Assembly: GCF_002113885.1 (NCBI RefSeq)
Contig: NW_018406168.1
Coordinates: forward strand, 3,714 to 67,713
Reading direction: 5' to 3'
Source: Mizuhopecten yessoensis
Lineage: Eukaryota
DNA: 64,000 bases
Position numbers and translations under genes: made by a program. Positions 1-49,100 of this stretch are shown here, piece after piece. Positions within the stretch are counted from its first letter, which is position 1. Every line of letters starts with the position of its first letter. A model generated the notes under the pieces. It had not been told where the DNA came from, searched no databases, and saw only the letters and a program-made list of their open reading frames with translations.

Positions 1-2340
1 AGGACTGATACCAGGGCTACAATATATATCTGTCTTACGTTTTTTGACAAAGTCAGAGGACTGATACCGGGGCTACACTATATATCTGTCATATGTCGAG
101 TAACATAGTCAGAGGACTGATACCAGGACTACGCTATATATCTGTCATACGTCTAGTGACATAATCAGAGGACTGATTCCGGGGCTACACTATATATATG
201 TCATACGTCTAGTATATATCTGTCATACGTCTAGTAACATAGTCAGAGGACTGATACCAGGACTACACTATATTTCTGTCTTACGTCTTTTGACAAAGTC
301 AGAGGACTGATACCGGGGCTACACTATATATCTGTCATACGTCGAGTAACATAGTCAGAGGACTGATAACAGGACTACACTATATATCTGTCATACTTCA
401 GGTGTAATAGTCAGAGGACTGATACCAGGGCTAGACTATATATCTGTCATACGTCCAGTGTTATAGTCAGAGGACTGATACCAGGGCTACACTATATATC
501 TGTCATACGTCTAGTGACATATTCAGAGGACTGATACCAGGGCTACACTACATATCTGTCATACGTCCAGTGGTATAGTCAGAGGACTGATACCAGGACT
601 ACACTATATATCTGTCATACGTCCAGTGACATATTCAGAGGACTGATACCAGGGCTACACTATACATCTGTCATACGTCCAGTGTTATAGTCAGAGGACT
701 GATATCAGGTCTACACTATATATCTGTCATACGTCCAGTGTTATAGTCAGAGGACTGATACCAGGACTACACTATATATCTGTCATACGTCCAGTGACAT
801 ATTCAGAGGACTGATACCAGGGCTACACTATACATCTGTCATACGTCCAGTGTTATAGTCAGAGGACTGATACCAGGGCTACACTATATATCTGTCATAC
901 GTCCAGTGATATAGTCAGAGGACTGATACCAGGGCTACACTATATATCTGTCATACGTCCAGTGATATAGTCAGAGGACTGATACCAGGGCTACACTATA
1001 TATCTGTCATACGTCCAGTGATATAGTCAGAGGACTGATACCAGGTCTACACTATATATCTGTCATACGTCTAGTGACATAGTCAGAGGACTGATACCAG
1101 GGCTACACTATATATCTGTCATACGTCCAGTGTTATAGTCAGAGGACTGATACCAGGGCTACACTATATATCTGTCATACGTCCAGTGATATAGTCAGAG
1201 GACTGATACCAGGGCTACACTATATATCTGTCATACGTCCAGTGATATAGTCAGAGGACTGATACCAGGACTACACTACATATCTGTCATACGTCCAGTG
1301 TTATAGTCAGAGGACTGATACCAGGGCTACACTATATATCTGTCATACGTCCAGTGATATAGTCAGAGGACTGATACCAGGGCTACACTATATATCTGTC
1401 ATACGTCCAGTGATATAGTCAGAGGACTGATACCAGGGCTACACTATATATCTGTCATACGTCCAGTGATATAGTCAGAGGACTGATACCAGGGCTACAC
1501 TATATATCTGTCATACGTCCAGTGATATAGTCAGAGGACTGATACCAGGGCTACACTATATATCTGTCATACGTCCAGTGATATAGTCAGAGGACTGATA
1601 CCAGGGCTACACTATATATCTGTCATACGTCCAGTGATATAGTCAGAGGACTGATACCAGGGCTACACTATATATCTGTCATACGTCCAGTGATATAGTC
1701 AGAGGACTGATACCAGGTCTACACTATATATCTGTCATACGTCTAGTGACATAGTCAGAGGACTGATACCAGGGCTACACTATATATCTGTCATACGTCC
1801 AGTGTTATAGTCAGAGGACTGATACCAGGGCTACACTATATATCTGTCATACGTCCAGTGTTATAGTCAGAGGACTGATACTAGGACTACACTACATATC
1901 TGTCATACGTCCAGTGTTATAGTCAAAGGACTCATACCAGGGCTACACTACATATCTGTCATACGTCCAGTGTTATAGTCAGAGGACTGATACCAGGACT
2001 ACACTATATATCTGTCATACGTCCAGTGTTATAGTCAAAGGACAGATACCAGGGCTACACTATATATATGTCATATGTCCAGTGACATAGTCAGAGGAGT
2101 GATACCAGGGTTACACTATATATATCACTACATATCTGTCATACGTCCAGTGTTATAGTCAGAGGACTGATACCAGGATCTGTCATACGTCCAGTGTTAT
2201 AGTCAAAGGACTCATACCAGGGCTACACTACATATCTGTCATACGTCTAGTGTTATAGTCAGAGGACTGATACCAGGTCTACACTATATATCTGTCATAC
2301 GTCGAGTGACATAGTCAGAGGACTGATTCCAGGGCTACAC
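1..2340. repeat. Tandem satellite/minisatellite, 56-bp unit, about 42 copies, runs off the left edge
   Basis: Unit AGTCAGAGGACTGATACCAGGGCTACACTATATATCTGTCATACGTCCAGTG(A/T)TAT recurs every 56 nt (e.g. 1081 and 1137). It is near-perfect at about 1300-1700 and more diverged or rearranged at the edges. Confidence 0.98.
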
Positions 2341-5300
2341 ATTTTATCTGCAATCAATTGTTTTTTTCGAAGTAATTAAAATTACTGCGATCAAAACCAA
2401 TGTAACGCCGTGTATTTATTCCATGCCAATCGTCATCGAATATTTCCCCTTAATACTCAATCGATTTAAACATATTGAGGATTTATAATTGGTACAATAT
2501 TCTAAACAGTCAAAATTACACACAAATACTTTCTTTCATTCTAGCACATGCAGATAAATCAATAAAATGTTGTTTTTTGAAATGTGTATTGTCGATCGAT
2601 TAATGCTACCTTTTAGCAAACAAAGATGATATTTGCTTTTCTGTTTTCTTCAACATTTATCCAGTTTAAATAAGCACCAGCTTAAACATCATCATCTGGT
2701 CTACATCGATACCCCCGTCGTCAGGTTCTAATTAGATCTGGTGGATGAAGTCAATAAACTGATTGTTCACAAATGGAAAAGTTCACATGGGTGACTTGCA
2801 TTGTAAGTGCATTTTTATGTCAAATGATTAAAGTTTCATATATGTTTTTGTGTTCGGTATATATACAGTCAATTGTGGATGGTGACGTTTTTGGTTATGA
2901 TAAAAAAAAATTGTCGTAATAAAGTAGACATTTCTCTGGGTATTAATAATTACAAAGTACGTAATAATCGTTTTCCACTTACTGCGACTCGTAGTGATGA
3001 GTAGAATAGATATTGAAATTCAGTTGTTTGGAATTCACAACGAAATATCAATATCACACAGAGTCACTACGCTGAAACCAAATGAAACGCGGGGATCACC
3101 CATCCAGCTACTTACCACGCTCGACGTTGCTGAACCGCCCCGCTGGAAATTCCTTAACTGTAATAGTAGCATTGCCTCATTATCAATCTCATCATTCTCG
3201 TGACGTCACACTTAAAACGCAAAAGATACCACTGGTAAATGATGGATATTATTTAGGACAATGATATCTATGGTATTCGTATAGATGACTTTAATTTTCT
3301 TCTGACAAAATATCAATTACCGTACTCTGTTACTAGTGAAATGCAAATACATCTCTATCGCTTTTAACTGTTTGCTTAACATTTCTATACATATGGGGTC
3401 TTAAATGTTGTTCTATAAGTACATTCACTAATTCTTGTCGTCAACGTTGCAGAGACAATTTATCTGTAAGTTAGACAGTAATGTTATACCAATAATTGCT
3501 CTCCTTTATTGCCATTTTGTCTTTCCCTGAAAGGTAAACGCAATGCTGATTTTTGTTCCGGTGTGCAGTTCCGTGCCTTTCAAGCATCAGGCGATATCAC
3601 AAGACGGACATTACATGTATATCCCAGATACATACAAAAAGGATACAAAGTTTCGTCAAACGTTAGGAGAAATTCATCAAAAAAGGACGAAATAAACACT
3701 TTTTTAAAATTTCTATTTCCAGTTTTAGCGGTGTCTTCGTTCCTTTTGCCGTTGTCACAGATGGCATGACATTAAAAGAAGAAATTGCAGCTATGAGCTA
3801 CCATATCTCAATTAAATTGGTACTGTCATTAATCGTTATGGAACAGGGAGTAAAATCGATTTGATGATTGCTGTATACTGTTACCAGCGCATAAAGTTTG
3901 TACACCCTGACATATGAACAGTGCTTCATGTACAATGTATATACATATTCTGGACAACAAGATAGTAGGAAAAGCAAACGAATAACGCTAGGTAAAGTAA
4001 CTATTTGCCGGAGGACGTCAATGTGATTCAAATGAACTGCTCGCGTCATAATTTTGATAATTGAAAATAAGGTAAACAAAGAATTCGAATAGTTCGATAT
4101 TGGAAAGGGTGGAGGCTGGACAATTGAAACAACGAAAGGCTGATGGTAACCGAGAAGATGCTGTCAGGTGTTATATTTGTGATAATACTTTGGACTGTGA
4201 GAGGTAAATATCGTTTGATTTTAAAACAATTGATGACTTGGAAAAATATTCTTTATTACAGTCACTTACAAATACTTTTATAAATTTAGAACAAATGAGG
4301 ATGGAGAGATGGGGAAACTGCTTAACAGACAAGGTATAACTGAATAATACCATCGTATGGCATTGCCACTTTACAGCCATACTAAATTCAGTTGAAATTC
4401 ATTTAGGCTATGAATGCCATGGGCCGCTTGTTTACGTCATCATTTTCATGACGTCATAAATGTTACGTTGTATACCACTGACCCTCCCTGGGCGATCGCT
4501 GTTCTGTTCATAGAACAAGCAAACACGACACATACATTATTTGAGCTAAATGCTGAATTATAATAAGTGTAATTGAATTTTCTATGAGATGAACAGATTC
4601 CCAAAAATGGTAAATATAAGTAGTGATCTGCTTTCAGTTTGCATTCATATTGCATACCAATGCCAACTGAAAGCAGTTCAATGCTTAAAGGACTGAACCA
4701 TCTGATATAACTAAATAGTCTAACCTCTTCAATCCATGCTGCTTTGTTCCGAGAATCTCGCAATCTAGATAGATAATGCTTAGAACGGACTTTAATAAAA
4801 AGAATTATACTCGATAACCCGTGACTGGCGTTTAATCGGCAAGACAATGTCACGTGACTTCTAGATTTTGTCTTGGCATCAAATGCATCTAGCGTAGCTA
4901 TTTATGTTCTGACAAAGTTGTTTACAGACACACAGACGTAACTCGGTGGCCGCAAGGTCATTTTTGACACCGTTTCTTCGTCCGACCAGACGCTAGTATT
5001 TTATTAACTCACTGAATTGTGATAAAAACAGGATAAAAGTTTGTTCACATTGCTACAGTCCAAAATCTGAAACAACAAGTCAGGGGCTTTTTTTCATGTC
5101 GAAAGTACAGTGATATAAAGACATTTTGGCAATGAAGTTATACCCTGCTATACAGAAAAGGTATATTTACCATTTCTCTTTTTTTAATAACTTGAACATT
5201 TTCAATATCAAATGTTTGCATGATCATAATACTCCGTATATCGGTATGCATTGTTAAAATAACCCCAGAAAGATAGGAAGCTTACAATTAGAAACTGCAC

Positions 5301-16878: not shown

Positions 16879-17144
16879 AACCATCATTATTTTGCTCCCA
16901 ACAAATCCAAATGAAACTGTCCCCAGGACTTTGGAACACAAACATGACGGTCAACATCACGTGGTCAGTGACCGCTGATAACCTCGGACAGTGCGCCGTT
17001 ACTTGCTCAAGGAGTAGTTCATGCATGTCATTTGTGTATGACAATGTGACAAAGACGTGCCAGGGTCATGGTGAAAAGTTCAATAACATCTCAGAAGGTC
17101 AAGGTCACACACATAGCGGAAGTCACTATTACATTAAACCATAG
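16879..17144 (+). pseudogene. Terminal exon encoding a PAN/Apple domain (same gene as the FAMeT-like exon)
   Basis: TTTCAG acceptor ends at 16878. QCAVTCSRSSSCMSFVYDNVTKTCQGH has the PAN C-x3-C-x5-C-x-SF-x-Y-x6-C pattern. Phase 1 matches the 12875 donor (C+AA = Gln). Stop TAG at 17142-17144. This exon itself is intact. Confidence 0.82.
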
Positions 17145-17854
17145 ATTTGTCTATGTCACCGTCGACACTGTTACCATGAAAATGTCTGTGACAAGAAAAT
17201 ACTATGTCACCAAATTAAGTGTTTTCAGATGATTAACTTTCTCGTCCTTTTTTTGGAATTTTCTGTCGTCTTTCTGAACAGCAACTTTTAAAGTTCTGTT
17301 CTTATTTCTATTTTACCTGTATCGATAAAACACCCGTATCCGTTCAAATCATCCCAGCGAATAAGTAACATGCAAACTTATGAAGACACACAGGACTGTA
17401 TTGGCTTGATTGGTATTTACTATGACAAGCAGCATGTTCATCCTCAGAACAATATGTGTGGGATCATACTTGTAATGGTATGTATATTCCTGCCAACACT
17501 TAATTTAATTCGAGATCGTTATCACCAAAACCATTCCGTTGCGTCGACTTATAAGATAATGAGGTCAACTTATCGTGACAATAATCAAGATAGCGGGGTA
17601 TTTATTATGATAATTATCGTGCTAGTTATTTCGCTATCATGCTAATTTGGATGAATTGTGATTCTTTTCTGTCAATGTCGGCATAATTAACTGAATAAGT
17701 CGCCTTAAACATTTAAAACTGCCACTGCTAATAACACTTATTTTGGCGTTCGAATCTGACGCACGCTCTAACCTTAGTTTACAGCCCAGGGTCGGGTATT
17801 GCCTTGCTAAATATGAACCCAGTGCTTAAAACAAGAGTTGGTTAAAGGTAACAC

Positions 17855-18100
17855 TGTACTGAAGAGAAAATATGTACGGCCAGATCGGAGTTCGAACCCA
17901 GATCGCCGAACTCTATACAGGCATTTTAACCAATTTAGCTACCTGACTGCCGGTCATCGATCCCGTCCAGGCCCGCTAGATTCCCCCACGTTTTTCTAAG
18001 TATTTGTCCCATAGACAACACTATTTATCACTGTAACAGGAGAGAAAAAAGTGCACGGCAGGGCCGGAATTCAAAACCTAGATCTCATAATTCTAGACGC
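17855..18100 (-). mobile_element. tRNA-derived repeat with TRIM-like layout: partial unit, 51-bp spacer with polypurine tract, full unit
   Basis: Minus strand: partial unit ending CTCCTGTTACA (18032); spacer ending AGAAAAACGTGGGGGAA (17997-17981); full unit 17980-17855 with A-box-like GGTAGCTAAATTGGT and B-box GGTTCGAACTCC, ending ...GTACA. Confidence 0.7.
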
Positions 18101-18104
18101 ATAT

Positions 18105-19140
18105 TCTTAACAGATAATGAATAACTTATTGATAGACGCCTTCCGACCAGGATTTGGGTGTCAATCCACCCTGTTGCGACTTGTTGGGGATTGGCGTAGA
18201 GCCCTGGACAACCATGAGTATGTCGCTGCCATACTGATGGACCTATCCAAGGCTTTTGACTGTCTTCCTCATAACTTATTGGTCGGTAAGCTGGATGCCT
18301 ATGGCCTGAGGAAAGCCTCAGTTAACCTGGTGTCCAGCTACCTGAGCAGCAGGAAGCAGCAGGTAAAAAGTGTGCTCGAAATGCGTTGACTAGCTGAAAG
18401 TGCTGAAAGGGGTACCCAAGGGTTCTATTTTAGGACCCTTGCTTTTTAATGTATTTGTAAATGATATGTTTTTGTATGTGACATCCTGTAAATTATATAA
18501 TTATGAAGACAACAACACTGTCAGTGAATCAAATAAAGACCCAGATGTTTTAAAAGATAATATTGAAAATGACTGTCAAATTTTAATAGACTGGTTTAAA
18601 TTAAACCAGATGAAAGCAAACCCTGATAAATTCCAGGCCATTTGTATAGGGAAACGTTCGGTAGATGCTATACAGTCTTTTAGTATTGGCGAAACAGATA
18701 TTGTTCCTGACAGTGTTGTCAAACTTTTATGTGTGAACTTTGATTCATTTTTAAACTTTGAAGCTCATATTTCTGAAATTGTATGAAAGTCACAAGGCAA
18801 TTGTCATTTTAAAGCGAATTGGGAGTTTTTTTCCAAACAAGGTAGACTTTTAATTTATAATTCTTTTATTGTTTCAAATCTTAACGACTGTCATTTAGTC
18901 TGGCACTCTTGTTCCATGAAGAGTGTCATGTTCACAACTCATCCTTCAGACACTTACTCAGTATTATCAACAGCGACAGGCTTCATGTAAGGCGTCTGAC
19001 GGATATGGGCTGTGAGGTTATCAAAATTATAAACAAAATGTCTCCTGAATATATTCATAACCTTGTAAATGTTAAGATGTCTAATTATACTTCAAGAAAG
19101 AAAATACTGCAGAGGTGCCCAGGGTCAACAATGTGAAGTA
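18105..19140 (+). mobile_element. Decayed CR1/L2-group LINE RT fragment (a different family from the 14338-16861 element)
   Basis: AFRPGFGCQSTLL, MDLSKAFDCLPH, GVPKGSILGPLLFN, degenerate catalytic YEDN and MKANPDKFQ, with stops and frameshifts. Confidence 0.92.
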
Positions 19141-28234: not shown

Positions 28235-28363
28235 TGGAGCGGAACAGGACTGGGTCGATCGTCGGCGACCAGGTAGCCCAATTGAAAGAGCGTCCGTCTA
28301 GAGTTCCGAGTGTTCCGGGTTCGAACTCAGGTCTGGTCGTGCATTTTCCCATCTCCCGTTAGA
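28235..28363 (+). mobile_element. Solo copy of the tRNA-derived unit (SINE-like or solo LTR)
   Basis: TGGAGCGGAACAGGAC...CCAGGTAGCCCAATTGAAAGAGCG...GGGTTCGAACTCAGG...CTCCCGTTAGA is colinear with 17980-17855. Flanked by TATT and CATT. Confidence 0.72.
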
Positions 28364-30468: not shown

Positions 30469-30769
30469 TGTAATAGTGTGTAACACGCATTGTAAAACTG
30501 TACATAGTCTTAATTATTGTGATGAGAAATGAATAAATACAGTGTACCTTATGGCATACAAGCCTTTCATTTGTTTTTCATTCCGTAATATTGATCAACA
30601 AATTGTACCAAATCGCACAGTTGTGCGGAGAGAAGCGCACAACGGGGCGAACGATTGCGAACCGTACAATTGTGAGCCCTATGTGCGGACGATGTGTAGA
30701 AGGTGTGTGCACGATGTATGCACGATGTGCAAACGCTATTTTTGGTGCGTTGTGCGGTCACACAACTGT

Positions 30770-33700
30770 ACCATCTATCTACTACTACCACCGTCCGTAG
30801 ATATCACATGTCTCCAACAACCATCTGTCTATAACTACAAGCTATCTACTACTACCACCGACCGTAAATATCACCTGTCTCCAACAACCATCTGTCTATA
30901 ACTACCACCTATCTACTACTACCACCGACCGTAAACATCACCTGTCTCCAACAGCCACCTGTCTATAAGTACCACCTATCTACTACTACCACCGACCGTA
31001 AATATCACCAGTCTACAACAGCCACCTGTCTATAACTACCACCTATCTACTACTACAACCGACCGTAAATATTACCTGTCTACAACAGCCACCTGTTTAT
31101 AACTACCAACTATCGACTACTACCACCGACCGTAAATATCACCTGTCTACAACAACCACCTGTCTAAAACTACCACCTATCTACTACTACAACCGACCGT
31201 AAATATCACCTGTCTACAACAGCCACCTGTCTATAAATACCACCTATCTACTACTACCCCCTACCGTAAATATCACCTGTCTCCAACAACCACCTGTCTA
31301 AAACTACCACCTATCTAGTACTACAACCGACCGTAAATATTACCAGTCTACAACAGCCACCTATCTATAACTACCACCTATCTAATACCACCGACCGTAA
31401 ATATCACTTGTCTACAACCGCCGCCTGTCAATAACTACCACCTATCGACTACAACCACCGACCGTAAATATCACATGACAACAACAGCCACCTGTCTATA
31501 ACCACCACCTATCAACCACTACCACCGACCATAAATATCACTTGTCTACAACAGCCCCCTGTCAATAACTACCACCTATCGACTACTACCACCGACCGCA
31601 AATATCACCTGTCTACAACAACAACCTGTCTAAAACTACCACCTATCTACTACAACCACCGACCGTAAATATCACTTGTCTACAACAGCCCCCTGTCAAT
31701 AACTACCCCCTATCGACTACAACCACCGACCGTAAATATCACATGTCTAACTACCACCTATCTACTACAACAACCGACCGTAAATATCACCTTTCTACAA
31801 CAGCCGCCTGTTTATAACTACCAACTATCGACAACTACCACCGACCGTAAATATCGCCTGTCTACAACAACCACCTGTCTATAACTACCACCTATCTACT
31901 ACTACAACCGACCGTAAATATCACCTGTCTACAACAGCCAGCTATCTATAACTACCACCTATCTACTACTACCACCGACCGTAAATATCACCTGTCTCCA
32001 ACAGCCACCTGTCTATAACTACCACCTATCTAATACCACCGACCGTAAATATCACATGACAACAACAGCCACCTGTCTATTACTACCACCTATCTACTAC
32101 TACCACCGACCGTAAATATCCCCAGCCTACAACAGCCACCTGTCTATAACTACCACCTATCTAATACCACCGACCGTAAATATCACATGACAACAACAGC
32201 CACCTGTCTATAACTACCACCTATCTAATACCACCGACCGTAAATATCACATGACAACAACAGCCACCTGTCTATAACTACCACCTATCAACTACTACCA
32301 CCGACCGTAAATATCACATGACAACAACAGCCACCTGTCTATAACTACCACCTATCTAATACCACCGACCGTAAATATCACATGACAACAACAGCCACCT
32401 GTCTATAACTACCACCTATCTAATACCACCGACCGTAAATATCACATGACAACAACAGCCACCTGTCTATTACTACCACCTATCTACTACTACCACCGAC
32501 CGTAAATATTACCTGTCTCCAACAGCCACCTGCCTATGACTTCCACCTATCGACTACTACCACCGACCGTAAATATCCCCTGTCTACAACAGCCACCTGT
32601 CTATAACTACAACCTATCTACTACTACCACCGACCGTAAATATCACCTGTCTCCAACAGCCACCTGTCTATAACTACCACCTATCTAATACCACCGACCG
32701 TAAATATCACATGACAACAACAGCCACCTGTCTATAACTACCACCTATCGACTACAACCACCGACCGTAAATATCACCAGTCTACAACAGCCACCTGTCT
32801 ATAACTACCACGTATCGACTACTACCACCGACCGCAAGTATTACCTGTCTACAACAGTCACCTGTCTATAACAACCATCTATCTACTTCTACCATGGTTC
32901 GTAAATGCCACCTGTCTATAAAAACCACCTGTCTATAACTACCATCTATCTACTTCTACCACCGTCTGTAGATATCACCTGTCTACAACAGTCACCTGTC
33001 TATAACTACCATCTATCTACTTCTACCACCGTCTGTAGATATCACCTGTCTACAACAGTCACCTGTCTATAACAACCACCTAGCTACTACTACCACCGAC
33101 CGTAAATATCACCTGTCTCCAACAGCCAACTGTCTATAACTACCACCTATATACTACCACCGACCATAAATATCACCTGTCTCCAACAGCCAACTGTCTA
33201 TAACTACCTCCGTCCGTAAAAATCACCTGTCTTTAACAACCACCTGTCTATAACTACCACCTATATACTACTACCACCGACCGTAAATATCACATGTCTG
33301 CAACAGCCACCTGTCTATAACTACCTCCGTACGTAAACATCCCCTCTCTGTAACTACCACCTATCTATACTACCTACGTCCGTAAATATCACCTGTCTAC
33401 AACATCCACCTGTTTATAACTACCACTTGTTTATAACTACCTCCGTCCTTAAATATCACCTGTCTACAAGAACCACCTGTTTATTACTACCACCTGTCTA
33501 TACCTGTCTCCGTCCGTAAATGTCACCTGTCTACAACATCCACCTGTTTATAACTACCACTTGTTTATAACTACCTCCGTCCTTAAATATCACCTGTCTA
33601 CAAGAACCACCTGTTTATTACTACCACCTGTCTATACCTGTCTCCGTCCGTAAATGTCACCTGTCTACAACATCCACCTGTTTATAACTACCACTTGTTT

Positions 33701-34230
33701 ATAACTACCTCCGTCCTTAAATATCACCTGTCTACAAGAACCACCTGTTTATTACTACCACCTGTCTATACCTGTCTCCGTCCGTAAATGTCACCTGTCT
33801 ACAACATCCACCTGTTTATAACTACCACTTGTTTATAACTACCTCCGTCCTTAAATATCACCTGTCTACAAGAACCACCTGTTTATTACTACCACCTGTC
33901 TATACCTGTCTCCGTCCGTAAATGTCACCTGTCTACAACATCCACCTGTTTATAACTACCACTTGTTTATAACTACCTCCGTCCTTAAATATCACCTGTC
34001 TACAAGAACCACCTGTTTATTACTACCACCTGTCTATAACTGTCTCCGTCCGTAAATGTCACCTGTATACAACATCCACCTGTTTATAACTACAACCTGT
34101 CTATAATTACCTCCGTCCGTAAATATCACCTGTCTACAACATACGCCTGTTTATTACTACCACCTATCTACTACTACATCCGTCCGTAAATATCACCTGT
34201 TTACAACAGCCACCTGTCTACTACTATCTC
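30770..34230 (+). repeat. Tandem array, about 67-bp unit built from about 17-bp sub-repeats (C/A-rich arm), with a 134-bp higher-order block
   Basis: ACCACCGACCGTAAATATCACCTGTCTACAACAGCCACCTGTCTATAACTACCACCTATCTACTACT, period 67 (30921 and 30988). Period 134 at 33401/33535/33669. Confidence 0.97.
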
Positions 34231-35885
34231 TGTTATAAACATGTGGTTGTTATAAACAGTTGGCTGTTGTAGACAGGTGGTTTTACGGACGGTGTTAGTT
34301 ATAGACAGGTGATTGATGCAGACAGGTGATATCTACAGACGGTGGTAGAAGTAGATAGATGGTAGTTATAGACAGGTGACTGTTGTAGACATGTGATATG
34401 TACGGACGGTAGAGGAAGTATATAGGTTGCTGTTACAGTGAGGTGATATATACGGACGGATGAAGTTATAGACAGTTGGTAGTTATAAACAGATGGATGT
34501 TGTAGACAGGTGGCACTTACGAACCATGGTAGAAGTAGATAGATGGTTGTTATAGACAGGTGGCATTTACGAACCATGGTAGAAGTAGATAGATGGTTGT
34601 TATAGACAGGTGACTGTTGTAGACAGGTGATATCTACAGACGGTGGTAGAAGTAGATAGATGGTAGTTATAGACAGGTGGTTGTTATAGACAGGTGGCAT
34701 TTACGAACCATGGTAGAAGTAGATAGATGGTTGTTATAGACAGGTGACTGTTGTAGACAGGTGATATCTACAGACGGTGGTAGAAGTAGATAGATGGTAG
34801 TTATAGACAGGTGGTTGTTATAGACAGGTGGCATTTACGAACCATGGTAGAAGTAGATAGATGGTTGTTATAGACAGGTGACTGTTGTAGACAGGTGATA
34901 TCTACAGACGGTGGTAGAAGTAGATAGATGGTAGTTATAGACAGGTGGTTTTTATAGACAGGTGGCATTTACGAACCATGGTAGAAGTAGATAGATGGTT
35001 GTTATAGACAGGTGACTGTTGTAGACAGGTGATATCTACAGACGGTGGTAGAAGTAGATAGATGGTAGTTATAGACAGGTGGTTTTTATAGACAGGTGGC
35101 ATTTACGAACCATGGTAGAAGTAGATAGATGGTAGTTATAGACAGGTGGTTGTTATAGACAGGTTACTGTTGTAGACAGGTGATACATCTGCAGATTGTG
35201 GTAGTAGTCGATTGATGGTAGCTATAGACAGGTGGTTGTTATAGACAGGTGATACATCTACAGACGGTGGTAGAAGTAGATAGATGGTAGTTATAGACAG
35301 GTGGTTGTTATAGACAGGTGTCATTTACGAACCATGGTAGAAGTAGATTGATGGTAGTTATAGACAGGTGACTGTTGTAGACAGGTGATATCTACAGACG
35401 GTGGTAGAAGTAGATTGATGGTAGTTATAGACAGGTGACTGTTGTAGACAGGTGATATCTACAGGCGGCGGTAGAAGTAGATAGATGGTAGTTATAGACA
35501 GGTGGTTGTTATAGACAGGTGGCATTTATGAACCATGGTAGAAGTAGATAGATGGTAGGTATAGACAGGTGACTGTTGTAGACAGGTGATACATCTACAG
35601 ACGGTGGTAGAAGTAGATTGATGGTAGTTATAGACAGTTGGTTGTTATAGACAAGTGGCATTTATGAACCATGGTAGAAGTAGATAGATGGTTGTTATAG
35701 ACAGGTGACTGTTGTAGACAGGTGATATCTACAGGCGGTGGTAGAAGTAGATAGATGGTAGTTATAGACAGGTGGTTGTAATTGACAGGTGATATTTACG
35801 GACGGTAGTAGAAGTCTATAGGTGGTTGATACAGAGAGGTGATATATACGGACGGATGTAGTTATAGACAGGTGGATGTTGTAAA
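34231..35885 (-). repeat. Inverted arm of the same satellite family, 134-bp higher-order repeat
   Basis: Reverse-complement units (TTATAGACAGGTGG...). GCATTTACGAACCATGG recurs at 34563, 34697 and 34831. Confidence 0.97.
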
Positions 35886-43200: not shown

Positions 43201-45423
43201 CGTTGGAATATATGTATTTAGATAAAACTGTTTACATCATCAACTCAAGAAATACAAAATATGCATCTGCATTCGGCTAGATGTGCTGGAGGTCCACGAA
43301 AGGGTTGCTGTTCTTGCCAAAATATTTCTACATCTATAATTAATGATGATTTAATATTGGCTTGATACTATGTTGTTCAATTAACATTTATTTTCCAAGC
43401 CAAAGTTGAGGAAATAGAACTCTATATTATGTTTATAAATACTGCAAGTGTTCGTGAGCCAAAGACCTCTGACAGCAATATTCGCTAGTACATGTAAATT
43501 AAATTTCGCAAGAACCAACCCTTGAATAGACCTCAGTTCGTATACTTCATTACATACAGTACAATTTCTATAATTCTGCAAATACTAAATATTTTATTCC
43601 AATTCCAAATGAATACCGTTTTTTTAACATAATATTATTTACAGTCTCATCCCAACATGTATGGCAAAATGGAAGTATAGGGTAGCAAAACAAAAAAGGG
43701 CTCATGCAAGAATTCAAACAAGCAATGCAATGCGCATAATCTCTTCTGATCTATGAAATCCTAGCGGATTGGCAGGACATAACTATGTCACAAATTCGTT
43801 AAATTACATGGTGTTTTTTTTGTGTGATGATGCGGATTATAATCAAAATTATGATCTTCTATTTCTTTTTTAGAGATGAAGACCCTCGCAAAAACCAGGG
43901 TGATGGGTGCCAAGATAGAGAGACCACCGAAAACAAAGAAGTGGAAGAAAAGACAAGATCTGCGTCCGAAGTTTAACAACTGGGACAGGAAATACATTTT
44001 GATATTTTCAGTCTTCATACATTGTAACTGTGATTGCATCAGAGTTATCTCCCGTTATTGCTACTGTAGGGGTTGCTCATGTGTACGTCATAGGACAGTT
44101 CAAATTGCCATTCATGACACTTTTCGACAATTTTCTATCGGTGCGGAACCCTTTTTTGAAGAAGTGTTATACGGTAGCATACCTCTTTAACATTATGTAT
44201 ATACACTATACATGTAAAATAATCTAAACACAATAAATGATCGGGTTGTAAGGAAAGCCTTCTGTTTGAAAGCGAACCATGAAGCGGAAGTCGGACACGT
44301 AAATTATGGTTTCGGTCAACCAAGCATCGATGCAGTCTCGTGGAATCAACGTGAGACTGGCTAAGCGAGACTAACTCGCACAATTCTGGGCCCTTTTATC
44401 CCATTTTATCTCTCAAAGTAAAACCTAAACGCCTGATAATGATAATGGGGATGACGGGACGGTTCCTCACTACCGATAGTGTCCCTGGAGTATCAATTTT
44501 ATATGACCGTTTTATATTTACAGTAAACTGACACGAAAGACTAAAAGCGGACTTGATCAAACAATAGTGCCATAAAAGTTTCCGAAAACTCTGTTGTAGG
44601 CCATTATTAGGTCGGCGTTGGGTTCTCTGCCTCTGATCAGGGGCAGCTACCGACATTGATTTTAACAGGGTCGAGACCCTGGTGCTATATCAGTCTAGCG
44701 GTCGTTTAGCTCAGTAAAGGTCTTCAAGGTGGAGGTACACGTAACAAGTGTACATTGAATCTCCAATGTCTTTCGCCTTCCTTCTCTTCTTTTAAGATAT
44801 TTATGACATCACAAAACTAGAGTGACAAATTCGTAACATTCATTCAAGGGTACATCTTTGCTTTCACGTGTTAGTATCCTAGAGTTATCTCCATTGCTTT
44901 TTATTAGCAATGTACGCATGTCACGTGATAGGGGTTTCTCTGGTAAACACCAATCATATGGCAGTTCTTAGAAAACAATATGTTAGCATGCGATTCCTGA
45001 GTGCATGTCGAGCGGCTGGGTAATACACACTGATATTGTTTTTCTTGGACGTTTTTCTTGGTGTTTCCTCTTTCGACGGAGAAACACTCGTAACCCGCGA
45101 TGAAACAAACCGGAAGTGATTAACCATTCGGAAGTGTGTCACCTTTCTAATTTCTGATATACATGGTACACAAATAAATCTGAACAGAAAATTAACATGG
45201 AGTGGGGTTGTGTAGTTTGTGGTCCCCCGTCTGACTTCCTCTGACATGATCTTGTAGTAGGTGGAATACCAAGTGCTTAACTTTCCTTCTGCTTTGTGTG
45301 TCAATGGTGTCTTTGGTTTTGTTTTCTTGTTTTTCCTGTGTCTGCTTCTGTCTTCGTACCAAATTTGAGTTAGCCTAGCTAACTGTCGATTTGGTATTGC
45401 ATATTGACGCTACGTGAATGTTT

Positions 45424-46152
45424 TCGATATTGTACCGATGGAGCTCTTTATCTCGATACTGTACCGATGGAGCTCTTTATCTCGATACTGTACCGATGGA
45501 GCTCTTTATCTCGATACTGTACCGATGGAGCTCTTTATCTCGATATTGTACCGATGGATTTCTTTATCTCGATACTGTACCGATGGAGCTCTTTATCTCG
45601 ATACTGTACCGATGGAGCTCTTTATCTCGATACTGTACCGATGGAGCTCTTTATCTCGATACTGTACCGATGGAGCTCTTTATCTCGATATTGTACCGAT
45701 GGAGCTCTTTATCTCGATACTGTACCGATGGATTTCTTTATCTCGATACTGTACCGATGGAGGTCTTTATCTCGATACTGTACCGATGGAGCTCTTTATC
45801 TCGATACTGTACCGATGGCGTTCTTTATCTCGATACTGTACCGATGGAGCTCTTTATCTCGATATTGTACCGATGGATTTCTTTATCTCGATACTGTACC
45901 GATGGATTTCTTTATCTCGATACTGTACCGATGGAGCTCTTTATCTCGATACTGTACCGATGGAGTTTATTATCTCGATATTGTACGGATGGAGCTCTTT
46001 ATCTCGATATTGTACCGATGGAGGTCTTTATCTCGATATTGTACCGATGGAGCTCTTTATCTCGATACTGTACCGATGGAGCTCTTTATCTCGATACTGT
46101 ACCGATGGAGCTCTTTATCTCGATATTGTACCGATGGAGTTCTTTATCTCGA
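45424..46152. repeat. Minisatellite, 29-bp unit, about 25 copies
   Basis: TCTCGATACTGTACCGATGGAGCTCTTTA, period 29 (45451 and 45480). Confidence 0.98.
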
Positions 46153-49100
46153 CTCTAATCAGACATTTGTGTATCAGATTGTGATACTAAATACATATAT
46201 AAGCCCACGTCAGGTGTAAGGTTGTTTCCGCCAATATGTATTGTTCAAGAAATGATGACGAAATACTGACTTCACCTGAAATCATAATTTATATTCAACT
46301 GTACAATGCAAGAAATCACATTGCTCGGGAAACGATTTTTGATCAAAAAATGTTCGATCGGACATCAGGTTTTGGTGCTGGCCTTAAAATCATTTTAAAT
46401 TCGTCGGCGTAAAAAATGTGAAAACTGCCACTGCTATTAAAAAATATAGGACCACTTGTATTAAAGGTGTTTTAAGTGCTTGGTGGGACATTGACAGTTG
46501 AAATTATGATAAAATTATGATTAATGACTAGAATATTTGCCTGTTGACGAATTTCAATACTAGTGTGATAAATGATTTGAACAGCAAACGTTTCTTCCCA
46601 GCATGACCAGGAGTGCAGCCATTGGACAAGTACCTAGTCTCTGAAACGCTTCATTTCGCTCTGACAATTACGTGGAATAACGCATTCACAACGACGCTTC
46701 AAATACACACCAGGTATCAGCAGGTAAACAAGATGGCCGTGATATATAACAATCTAGCTTTGACGTTTAAAACTTTTTAAACGACGAAGATTAGAATTGT
46801 GGGGAATTTAAATCAATTGAGTGCTATGTTTTGACATTAAGTGTGTCGAGTCGAGAGGTATCTATTTATCCAAATATTTCAGGGTGTTTATATATAAGAA
46901 AAAAAATATAATCTAGATTTAAAGTTAAGGGTTGGGCAGGCACCTTGAAGTTGGATACTTGCATATCTATACATGAAATATAAAGATTTGTTATCATGCT
47001 AAACCTGTGCCTCATGCGAGGCGATATGTTATGAAAGCTAAAACGTATTTAAAGGGTACATAAGCAAACACAAGCTATACGAGAAATTCGAGCGTTTCTG
47101 TTTTTCAATTGCAACATAAACTGACATTCAAAATCTCTAAATGTTATTATCAGCTAATGAACCAAAATATTTCGACAATGAGGGACTTTTCAATTTAAAG
47201 GAGGACAAGCTTGCAACGTGCTTAAGTGTGTTTAAGTCTAGAAACATGTTTACCTACGTGTTTGTATCCTGTTAAATTGCAGTTGGCTCCACATATGTGA
47301 AAAAATGTTTTGATGCAATATGCAGTAAAGCTGAATTGAATTGAAGTGAAATGATGCTACAAATCTGTAAAGGAATTGAGGTAAAATAATCCAACGCAAT
47401 ATAGTTACTGAACAACCTCTCTTCAATACTAACTGTCAAGCATCGTTTTCCTTGGTCAGCGATAACGGGAGAAACATGCATAACGTAACAGATGATACTG
47501 CTTCAACAGATCATGTTGAATAAAGCATTGTGCTGACTGTAGAGATTGTGTGTCGGTATCTTTTCAATGTGTTTATGGTTTCGACTTCAGTTTATATAAC
47601 ACATGGTGTGCATTTTGTAAACACTTCATAACAAAGTGGGAAACACCGCTCTAACACGGTCTTATAAGGCTAAAAACGTCAAATGAGACCACGCGTGGAG
47701 GTACACTTTCAGATCAAGTACGTAACACGATTTAAACAAAAAATTGTCCTATTATGAAGAGCAAAATCCCCAAATGTACATACATGCACCTGTATATAAT
47801 ACTGTAAGCGTTATAAAATCTTCATAAAAGATTTGTCATATAGCTGGCTACCAGGTATTCAATTCACCGACGAGATAAGTGGGAAACCTAAAAGTGAACG
47901 TCACAATCAGAGTATCGGCTGGACTAGGATTTTTAACGTGTTATTTATGTATGCGTAATTATTGATAAAATTCTCCGCTTTTGATAAATTGTTTTTTAAT
48001 ACAGAAGGGTCGAAGATAAGATGACATAAGTTAACACCGGTGAAGCTCGGGGTCTTGTCACGGATTCGAGTGACAAGTCACGACAGACGAGATGTGCGGG
48101 TCTGTTGTGGGTTCATACATTATTCTAACTTAAACAACTCTGATACCATAGCAGTTTCATAAACAGGACTGTCTATAGCGACCAGACGGAGACACAAAAT
48201 GAACAAGGCGAGCTGTAGGTACATGGATTATCAACAAACGTTTGAACAGCGACTTTTAGGGGACGTCTGTCATACCCAGGGACAACGTAAACACCTGTCT
48301 AAAACGGTCATCCTACAGAACGGCCATAGATCAACTGCAGGGATGTGAACTTATGTGAATAAACAGTTCATGTCCTTTTCAAAGCGGTCACTCATGAACA
48401 CCTCATAAACGAATTGCGTTCATCCATGCAAATATGTCAACATTCAAGGTGATGCTGTTTTGCAAACATTGCGTATTTAGAATTTGAAAACAATATGCTT
48501 GTGTGTTAAGACCTGGAAAGTTAAACGGCCTGGAGTGTTGTAGTGAAACATGTTTTTTTTTGTGTTCAAAAAGATGGTTGACGGACGTGGAGCTAGATAT
48601 TAACTATAGTGTGTCTGATTTGATTGCCATGTCAGTTGTACTTCAATGGTATTGTATAGACTCGTGCATTCCATTAAATTTTATCTAAACGTCCAAAATA
48701 ATCAAAAAACATACAGTTGAAATTGAAAACTCATCAGCATAACGGTTTGGAATTGAAGGTCAAAATAGAGTTAAGGCAGGTATTTTAGGATGCTGTACGT
48801 GTTTCCTCTGAACCTCCAACCACCAGGTGTAAAGCCATACTGCAAGGTGACAGTGAAATGTACTATTTGTCTATTGCAATGATACAGGACCGTCTACATG
48901 CGTTTGTTTACCGACACAGGGTCGAGACAGAGCAAGGGGGAGGAGAATGGTGCTAACACCGCTACTAGTTGATGATGAGGAAAACGTCTGCAGGAACGCT
49001 CTTAACGTAGCCAAACCACGCTAATGTTTACTGTACATAACGCTTGCAGTTTTAACACCCGGCAGTAATATCTAAACCAGAGAAACCATCTTTTTCATAC

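Follow-up and report, generated by a model that had tools for sequence, protein, structure and literature searches.

The window, as we call the whole stretch of 64,000 nucleotides of Mizuhopecten yessoensis DNA analysed here, contains on its minus strand a decayed series of repeat units. Read in the direction of the element, the series begins with the remnant of an LTR (18032..18107, LTR positions 53-128), which ends in CTCCTGTTACA and is matched with E 1.9e-9 by a profile made of 100 real copies of the LTR. There follows a spacer of 51 nt (17981..18031), which BLAST and profile matches to internal regions of the His and Arg types described below place at positions ~72-122 of ~123, and which closes, as read from the sequence, in a decayed polypurine tract (17981..17997) adjoining a full LTR. 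The latter (17855..17980, E 1.6e-20) is 126 nt long, strongly diverged, carries a tRNA-derived segment and ends in ACA; motif matches within it comprise a Pol III box A-like motif TRGCY...YGG (17930..17941) and a box B core GGTTCGA (17892..17898), with a run of four T thereafter (17870-17867). Next to this LTR, a second internal region is represented by its positions 1-77 (17778..17854, E 1.3e-11), the 5' part; it is cut on its 3' side and assigned to the His type by alignment with real copies. Its decayed primer-binding site (PBS, 17839..17853) agrees at 10 of 14 positions with the complement of the host tRNA-His(GTG) plus CCA, and the first 17 nt are 74% like His-type copies versus 45% like Arg-type copies. 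The partial unit ending at 18032, the spacer with its purine tract (18031-17981) and the full unit with its boxes (17980-17855) had all been correctly described in a first-pass annotation of this DNA, which considered the PBS too degraded to identify; the site is indeed decayed and is absent from the spacer, yet it can be recognised in the second internal region (17854-17778), which had been missed.

Profile searching of the window gave, together with these two LTRs, a third match on the plus strand (28235..28363, E 1.7e-35), and all three lie far beyond chance because the next match in the window only reaches E 0.44. This third copy, which does start with TG at 28235 as noted earlier, is a solo LTR of 129 nt with TG...GA ends and the flanks TATT and CATT, a 4-nt target duplication (TSD) with one mismatch. 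Outside the element, a broken LINE-type reverse-transcriptase fragment (18108..18783, plus strand; Pfam RVT_1 in two stretches of the translation, E 4.6e-4 and 2.5e-8) starts directly beside the upstream LTR remnant. The previous suggestion that the LINE had cut this LTR holds with regard to their adjoining, but a clean insertion is unsupported, the first 52 LTR positions being found by the profile search nowhere in the window, including the region beyond the LINE. The upstream remnant and the full LTR are identical at 54 of 71 aligned positions (76%), and in the LTR tree the full LTR occupies a terminal branch of 0.33 versus a median of 0.065. ARAGORN called no tRNA in the window, and the window LTR is also without an Rfam call. 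The outer ends of the array have been lost, and its own TSD is unreadable.

Judging from this layout, the window copy is the remnant of a decayed tandem array, composed of part of an LTR, a deleted internal region, an LTR and a cut internal region. The idea of a whole element made of LTR, 51 nt and LTR had therefore to be given up: the spacer retains the final ~50 nt of an internal region of ~123 nt, having lost the PBS along with the first ~70 nt, and the deletion is a one-off. Its length is found in one of the 125 LTR-to-LTR intervals of the fetched loci, and a genome-wide pattern for the spacer junction gave two matches, the window copy and one unrelated site without an LTR; a subfamily with a 51-nt internal region was rejected on both grounds. 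For the window copy only, two independent deletions in an array could be replaced by the insertion of an LTR end at internal position ~74-77, or by a circularly permuted one-LTR circle, since the second internal region reaches position 77 and the first begins at 72-74, an overlap of ~4-6 nt with the size of a target duplication. We hold such an origin to be unlikely, given that the first three bases of the spacer equal the start of His-type internal regions (GTG), as fits a simple deletion, that tandem arrays are common in the family (6 chains of 3-5 LTRs among 203), and that the junction has no second copy in the genome.

The family to which this array belongs was delimited by a DNA search of the host genome, where the best 40 of 116 candidates were scored, all matching. 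The first 30 loci showed the unit in three arrangements, namely LTR-internal-LTR, solo and array. Another 30 loci were picked solely by a 38-mer from the LTR start (64 exact genome matches), and 16 of these 30 showed a second same-strand LTR 60-150 nt away (loci L198 and L199 being one element). The 210 loci, minus 23 in one minisatellite, gave 203 distinct chains, of which 72 have both outer ends clean, two of these insertions being twins within locus L030. LTR-to-LTR intervals (n=125) fall mostly at 80-89 nt (27) and at 120-129 nt (56), many loci having been selected by junction patterns. Elements of ~344 and ~379 nt result, below the 1000 bp set for Helenus, with LTRs of 128 nt and non-coding internal regions of 88 or ~123 nt, whose last 13 nt are 95-98% purine (50 internal regions) and form a polypurine tract abutting the 3' LTR. 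Dividing the 64 exact matches by 5 of 180 gives a very rough family size of ~2,300 LTRs, with a wide error.

Clean insertions start with TG in 64 of the 72 cases and end with CA in 64. Exact 4-nt TSDs flank 37 of them and TSDs with at most one mismatch 58, so that 35 are without an exact one, whereas mismatched flanks used as control gave 1.0% exact of 5112. At the 37 exact sites the target preference is symmetric, ATA-N4-TAT (A in 19, T in 29 and A in 23 sites at -3, -2 and -1; T in 21, A in 24 and T in 26 at +1, +2 and +3). Such symmetric flanks are expected of an integrase. Two solo LTRs (L013:1502-1629, minus strand, and L016/L017) show exact 5-nt TSDs. A dependence of TSD length on the primer type was rejected, with exact 4-nt TSDs in 11 of 21 Lys, 7 of 14 His and 6 of 16 Arg insertions, and no 5-nt case among them.

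These data leave very little room for ordinary tRNA-derived SINE copies that happen to lie near one another, a reading to which we give almost no credence. It is true that the unit has boxes A and B with a tRNA fold, and that 15 of the 72 clean insertions are single units, a common form; nevertheless, fixed 4-nt TSDs, TG...CA ends and conserved spacers with a PBS and a purine tract are foreign to it. Runs of at least six A follow only 3 of 72 copies versus 1 of 72 upstream, with an A content of 0.34 on both sides, and flank repeats of 7-20 nt occur in only 2 of 72. A SINE2 has a tRNA-derived head with boxes A and B at its 5' end; in the present unit the boxes occur and the tRNA-derived segment starts at LTR position 32. 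The SINE pattern of tails, variable TSDs and absent unit-spacer-unit pairs did not appear, and the class proposed in the first-pass annotation, a TRIM with tRNA-derived LTRs (Helenus), has proved right: TG...CA ends, LTR pairs, PBS, polypurine tract and 4-nt TSDs occur together without tails. Altogether, with a probability of roughly 0.93, we read the locus as a dead and rearranged tandem remnant of a gene-less Helenus TRIM, likely transcribed by Pol III and likely mobilised by a Gypsy helper, whose family comprises three tRNA-primed subfamilies, His and Arg being likely related through PBS replacement. The observed basis of this reading comprises the LTR pairs, the PBS complementarity, the polypurine tract, the 4-nt TSDs with their symmetric target, the solo LTRs and the arrays.

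The tRNA-derived segment, positions 32-106 of the LTR (75 nt), matches the Rfam family RF00005: in three complete elements, four of the six LTRs exceed the gathering score (37.7-46.2 bits, cut-off 29) and a fifth falls below it. ARAGORN calls tRNA genes in 33 of 125 LTRs, 28 of them as Ser(AGA), which might suggest that functional tRNA-Ser(AGA) genes have expanded into a family. Serine tRNAs, however, have a long variable arm, and in the alignment of the 75-nt segments to the tRNA model the variable loop is short. Functional genes are also made very improbable by the position of the units within LTRs, which decay like neutral DNA (LTR pairs 82-88% identical), and by the same false calls having been reported for fungal Helenus (PMC10886601).

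Box A (TRGCY...YGG) is present in 73 of 109 family LTRs and box B (GGTTCRA) in 65 of 109, and from these promoter boxes transcription by Pol III appears likely. Still, the replicating RNA of a TRIM with Helenus structure could be made by Pol II, either from an LTR promoter or by read-through from the host, in which case the tRNA segment would be a passenger. This would agree with the T5 run that immediately follows the tRNA segment in the majority of Lys and His LTRs (31 of 40 and 12 of 17; Arg LTRs have mostly T3, 15 of 23) and at which Pol III would tend to terminate within the 5' LTR, making it necessary to assume read-through; it would also agree with RNA reads that mostly continue into the flanks, and the Pol III promoter of Helenus is stated as not validated (PMC10886601). 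We nonetheless regard a Pol II origin as doubtful, because boxes A and B are kept at the above frequencies in decayed LTRs and also across bivalve Helenus families (PMC10886601), because the 31 nt of LTR upstream of the tRNA segment leave little room for a promoter, and because Cassandra offers a validated precedent for a Pol III-type LTR promoter (PMC10886601). As for the RNA itself, four RNA-seq runs, 18-19% of each covered, placed 619-810 reads on one copy. The reads cover LTR and internal region, derive from many diverged copies and continue into unlike sequence in 87-93% of cases, with no pile-ups of starts or ends and with mates equally on both strands, the libraries being apparently unstranded. 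Such a pattern fits passive read-through, and the libraries are uninformative on Pol III.

A further feature of the family is that one kind of LTR is combined with three PBS types, complementary to the host tRNA-Lys(CTT), tRNA-His(GTG) and tRNA-Arg(ACG). Exact patterns of LTR end plus PBS occur genome-wide 50 times for Lys, 140 for His and 44 for Arg, with no match to any of the reversed controls; 25 of the 100 His junctions among the matches listed lie in one minisatellite. Genomic tRNAs ending in the complement of the Arg PBS gave 18 matches, and all six scanned loci are tRNA-Arg(ACG); those for the His PBS gave 14 matches (3 of 3 scanned being His(GTG)) and those for the Lys PBS 9 (3 of 4 scanned being Lys(CTT)). 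Perfect pairing extends over 11-12 nt in 20 of 21 Lys-type copies and over 12-15 nt in 8 of 16 Arg-type copies, the other Arg copies being broken after 4 or 8 nt, while 13 of 14 His-type copies pair over 7 nt, one bulged base and another 7-8 nt. These proportions are inflated because the copies were partly chosen by the junction patterns, but that choice has no bearing on the match to host tRNAs. Priming by the tRNA segment of the LTR itself was rejected, as it has no complementarity to its own PBS (best local complementarity scores of 4-5, one copy per type).

Two peculiarities of these sites can be added. The base that bulges from the His-type PBS, extra with respect to the host tRNA-His, is present in 98 of the 100 His junctions among the matches listed, two being without it; a variant host tRNA-His was rejected as its source, all 14 tRNA matches lacking the extra base, and amplification had evidently not led to a correction of the bulge from the primer. 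The 14-nt PBS of the Arg type is for its part almost self-complementary and folds onto itself (e.g., loci L043 and L047), and a G-to-A change in 16 of 44 Arg junctions, most simply explained as CpG decay, turns it into a perfect palindrome.

Comparison of the subfamilies indicates where they differ. Internal regions of the His and Arg types are 81% identical between types over their last 106 nt (87% within His, 80% within Arg), and only 51% over their first 18 nt; Lys-type internal regions have only their last ~42 nt in common with the other two (78-80%). The majority sequences of Lys and His LTRs differ at two columns, and Arg LTRs differ at six columns that lie beside the PBS, toward the 3' end. 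The LTR tree leaves 40 of 78 branches open, and Arg is the sole group that clusters (22 of 23 LTRs, support 92/93). Because mean LTR-pair identity amounts to 0.88 for Lys (n=17), 0.84 for His (n=10) and 0.82 for Arg (n=10), the family is old in the host genome; a few young Lys arrays reach LTR identities of up to 0.97. Of the His and Arg types, one likely gave rise to the other when its PBS was replaced, and the diversity of primer sites within one LTR likely records a switching of the borrowed host tRNA.

These comparisons can be read as an exchange of modules: Lys and His types combine nearly the same LTR with different internal regions, and His and Arg types combine the same internal body with a different 14-nt PBS and adjoining LTR end. 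Tentatively, and somewhat short of even odds, we propose two primer switches by module exchange, each subfamily having depended on a different Gypsy helper in successive waves, to judge from the mean LTR-pair identities, and a hairpin before the polypurine tract serving as the shared recognition signal. This short hairpin lies in the last ~40 nt of the internal region of all three types (e.g., loci L008, L018 and L093), and by eye it recurs, with other letters in the stem, in the printed Helenus families of oysters and scallops; the word hairpin is absent from the main text of PMC10886601. Its pairing exceeds that of slid controls (76% versus 41-57%, and 87% versus 28-48%), which is weak evidence, the structure having been taken from one member, and the folding energy of single internal regions was not significant (z from -1.6 to 1.2 for Lys, -2.9 to 0.8 for His and -2.2 to 0.9 for Arg). 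A role of the hairpin as recognition signal is possible.

How the element would have multiplied can be sketched from the above. Transcription would start in the 5' LTR, at its tRNA-like segment, and stop at the T-run of the 3' LTR; the minus strand would be primed at the PBS by a host tRNA and the plus strand by the purine tract; an integrase would insert the resulting DNA with a 4-nt stagger, and recombination between LTRs would yield the solo LTRs and the arrays. The enzymes for copying and insertion likely came from a Gypsy-type helper. Pol III transcription, tRNA priming and Gypsy trans-mobilisation are steps that we infer by analogy to Cassandra and Helenus. Helpers were sought for the Arg type only: the genome contains no 16-nt Arg PBS, and no intact helper was found. 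Variant matches to the Arg PBS comprised family members in 5 of 6 cases, and in the remaining one a different LTR-like end with a 15-nt PBS for tRNA-Arg(ACG). The latter belongs to a decayed LTR-like element (L235:8585-8900 and 4310-4798, minus strand); 3.8 kb downstream, the same strand carries a weak remnant of an integrase (E 9e-4, below the cut-off), and two other copies of the element's LTR end are without the PBS. As an intact Arg-primed helper this candidate was rejected, being decayed and with its other end copies lacking the PBS, and we take it as a lead rather than as an identified helper.

The Helenus class (TRIMp3) was defined by Kojima in 2024 with 51 bivalve families and 4-nt TSDs (PMC10886601), the same TSD length as in the family described here, and it is already known from scallops; the diversity of primer sites in one LTR family is an added detail. 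Our LTRs of 128 nt compare with 129 and 130 nt in Helenus-2_PeMa and Helenus-1_ArIr (PMC10886601), and one real copy (L018:1316-1443) equals the printed Helenus-2_PeMa LTR at 118 of 127 positions aligned by hand (~93%) (PMC10886601). The Lys-type internal region (88 nt) resembles by eye the Lys-primed ones of 90 and 93 nt in these two families, each of which is listed with one internal region per LTR, whereas several types occur here (PMC10886601). For the ~123-nt His and Arg internal regions, a motif search of the supplement gave no match among the printed families, although a motif broken at a line end could escape it (PMC10886601). Primers named for bivalve Helenus are Lys, His, Ile, Pro, Glu and Ser, and wasp Helenus use Arg(TCT) (PMC10886601); an Arg(ACG) PBS is in neither the bivalve primer list nor the supplement of that work (PMC10886601). 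The His and Arg subfamilies may already have been entered in Repbase or Dfam. Primer changes were inferred by Kojima from comparisons between families (PMC10886601). By keyword search that work was the sole relevant match in the TRIMp3 literature, with none found on scallop Helenus or on primer switching.

Closest in layout to our His type are, by eye, the tRNA-His-primed oyster families Helenus-2C_CGi and Helenus-1_SaGl, with a long hairpin, CCTGGG, a short hairpin and a purine tract (PMC10886601), LTRs of 128-129 nt and a similar tRNA segment (PMC10886601); they differ in sequence, in internal regions of 101-103 nt and in a PBS without the extra T seen here. Cassandra and Ajax (TRIMp3) likewise combine a Pol III-type promoter inside the LTR with tandem arrays (PMC10886601), but their LTRs are 5S-derived instead of tRNA-derived, they occur in plants and nemerteans, and Ajax has 5-nt TSDs (PMC10886601). 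Solo repeats and tandem arrays are also formed by biv-TRIM, a bivalve TRIM (Satovic 2019, PMC6934838); in this case, however, the repeats measure 202-218 nt and the internal region 77-80 nt, with no clear PBS and no tRNA promoter reported (PMC6934838). Identity with biv-TRIM was rejected in view of the 128-nt LTRs and the internal regions of 88 or ~123 nt found here.

Genome annotation would wrongly take roughly two thousand LTRs, a very rough figure, to be SINEs or tRNA-Ser genes. His and Arg subfamilies that share one internal body in one genome pin the primer change down to the PBS and the end of the LTR, which makes the idea of a helper switch testable. If true, module exchange would be a preserved record of how a retrotransposon parasite changes its helper.

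Some further observations concern repeats and neighbours. At G000:C588 (~104860-110805) a minisatellite with a period of 52-57 nt consists of the last ~39 nt of the LTR plus the His-type PBS, with pieces at L236:4862-6047, L236:8699-8942 and L237:1-805; it is a TRIM-born tandem repeat, grown directly from one LTR copy. Within the window, an open stretch on the plus strand (~16930-17130) has a cysteine pattern in its translation, which we take to resemble an exon of a PAN/apple domain, and the Helenus copy may therefore lie in or beside a host gene. Tandem arrays occupy window positions 23-2300, 30650-35600 and 45280-46300, with periods of 56, 67 and 29 nt, respectively, and the array with the 67-nt period (30650-35600) holds an inverted block.
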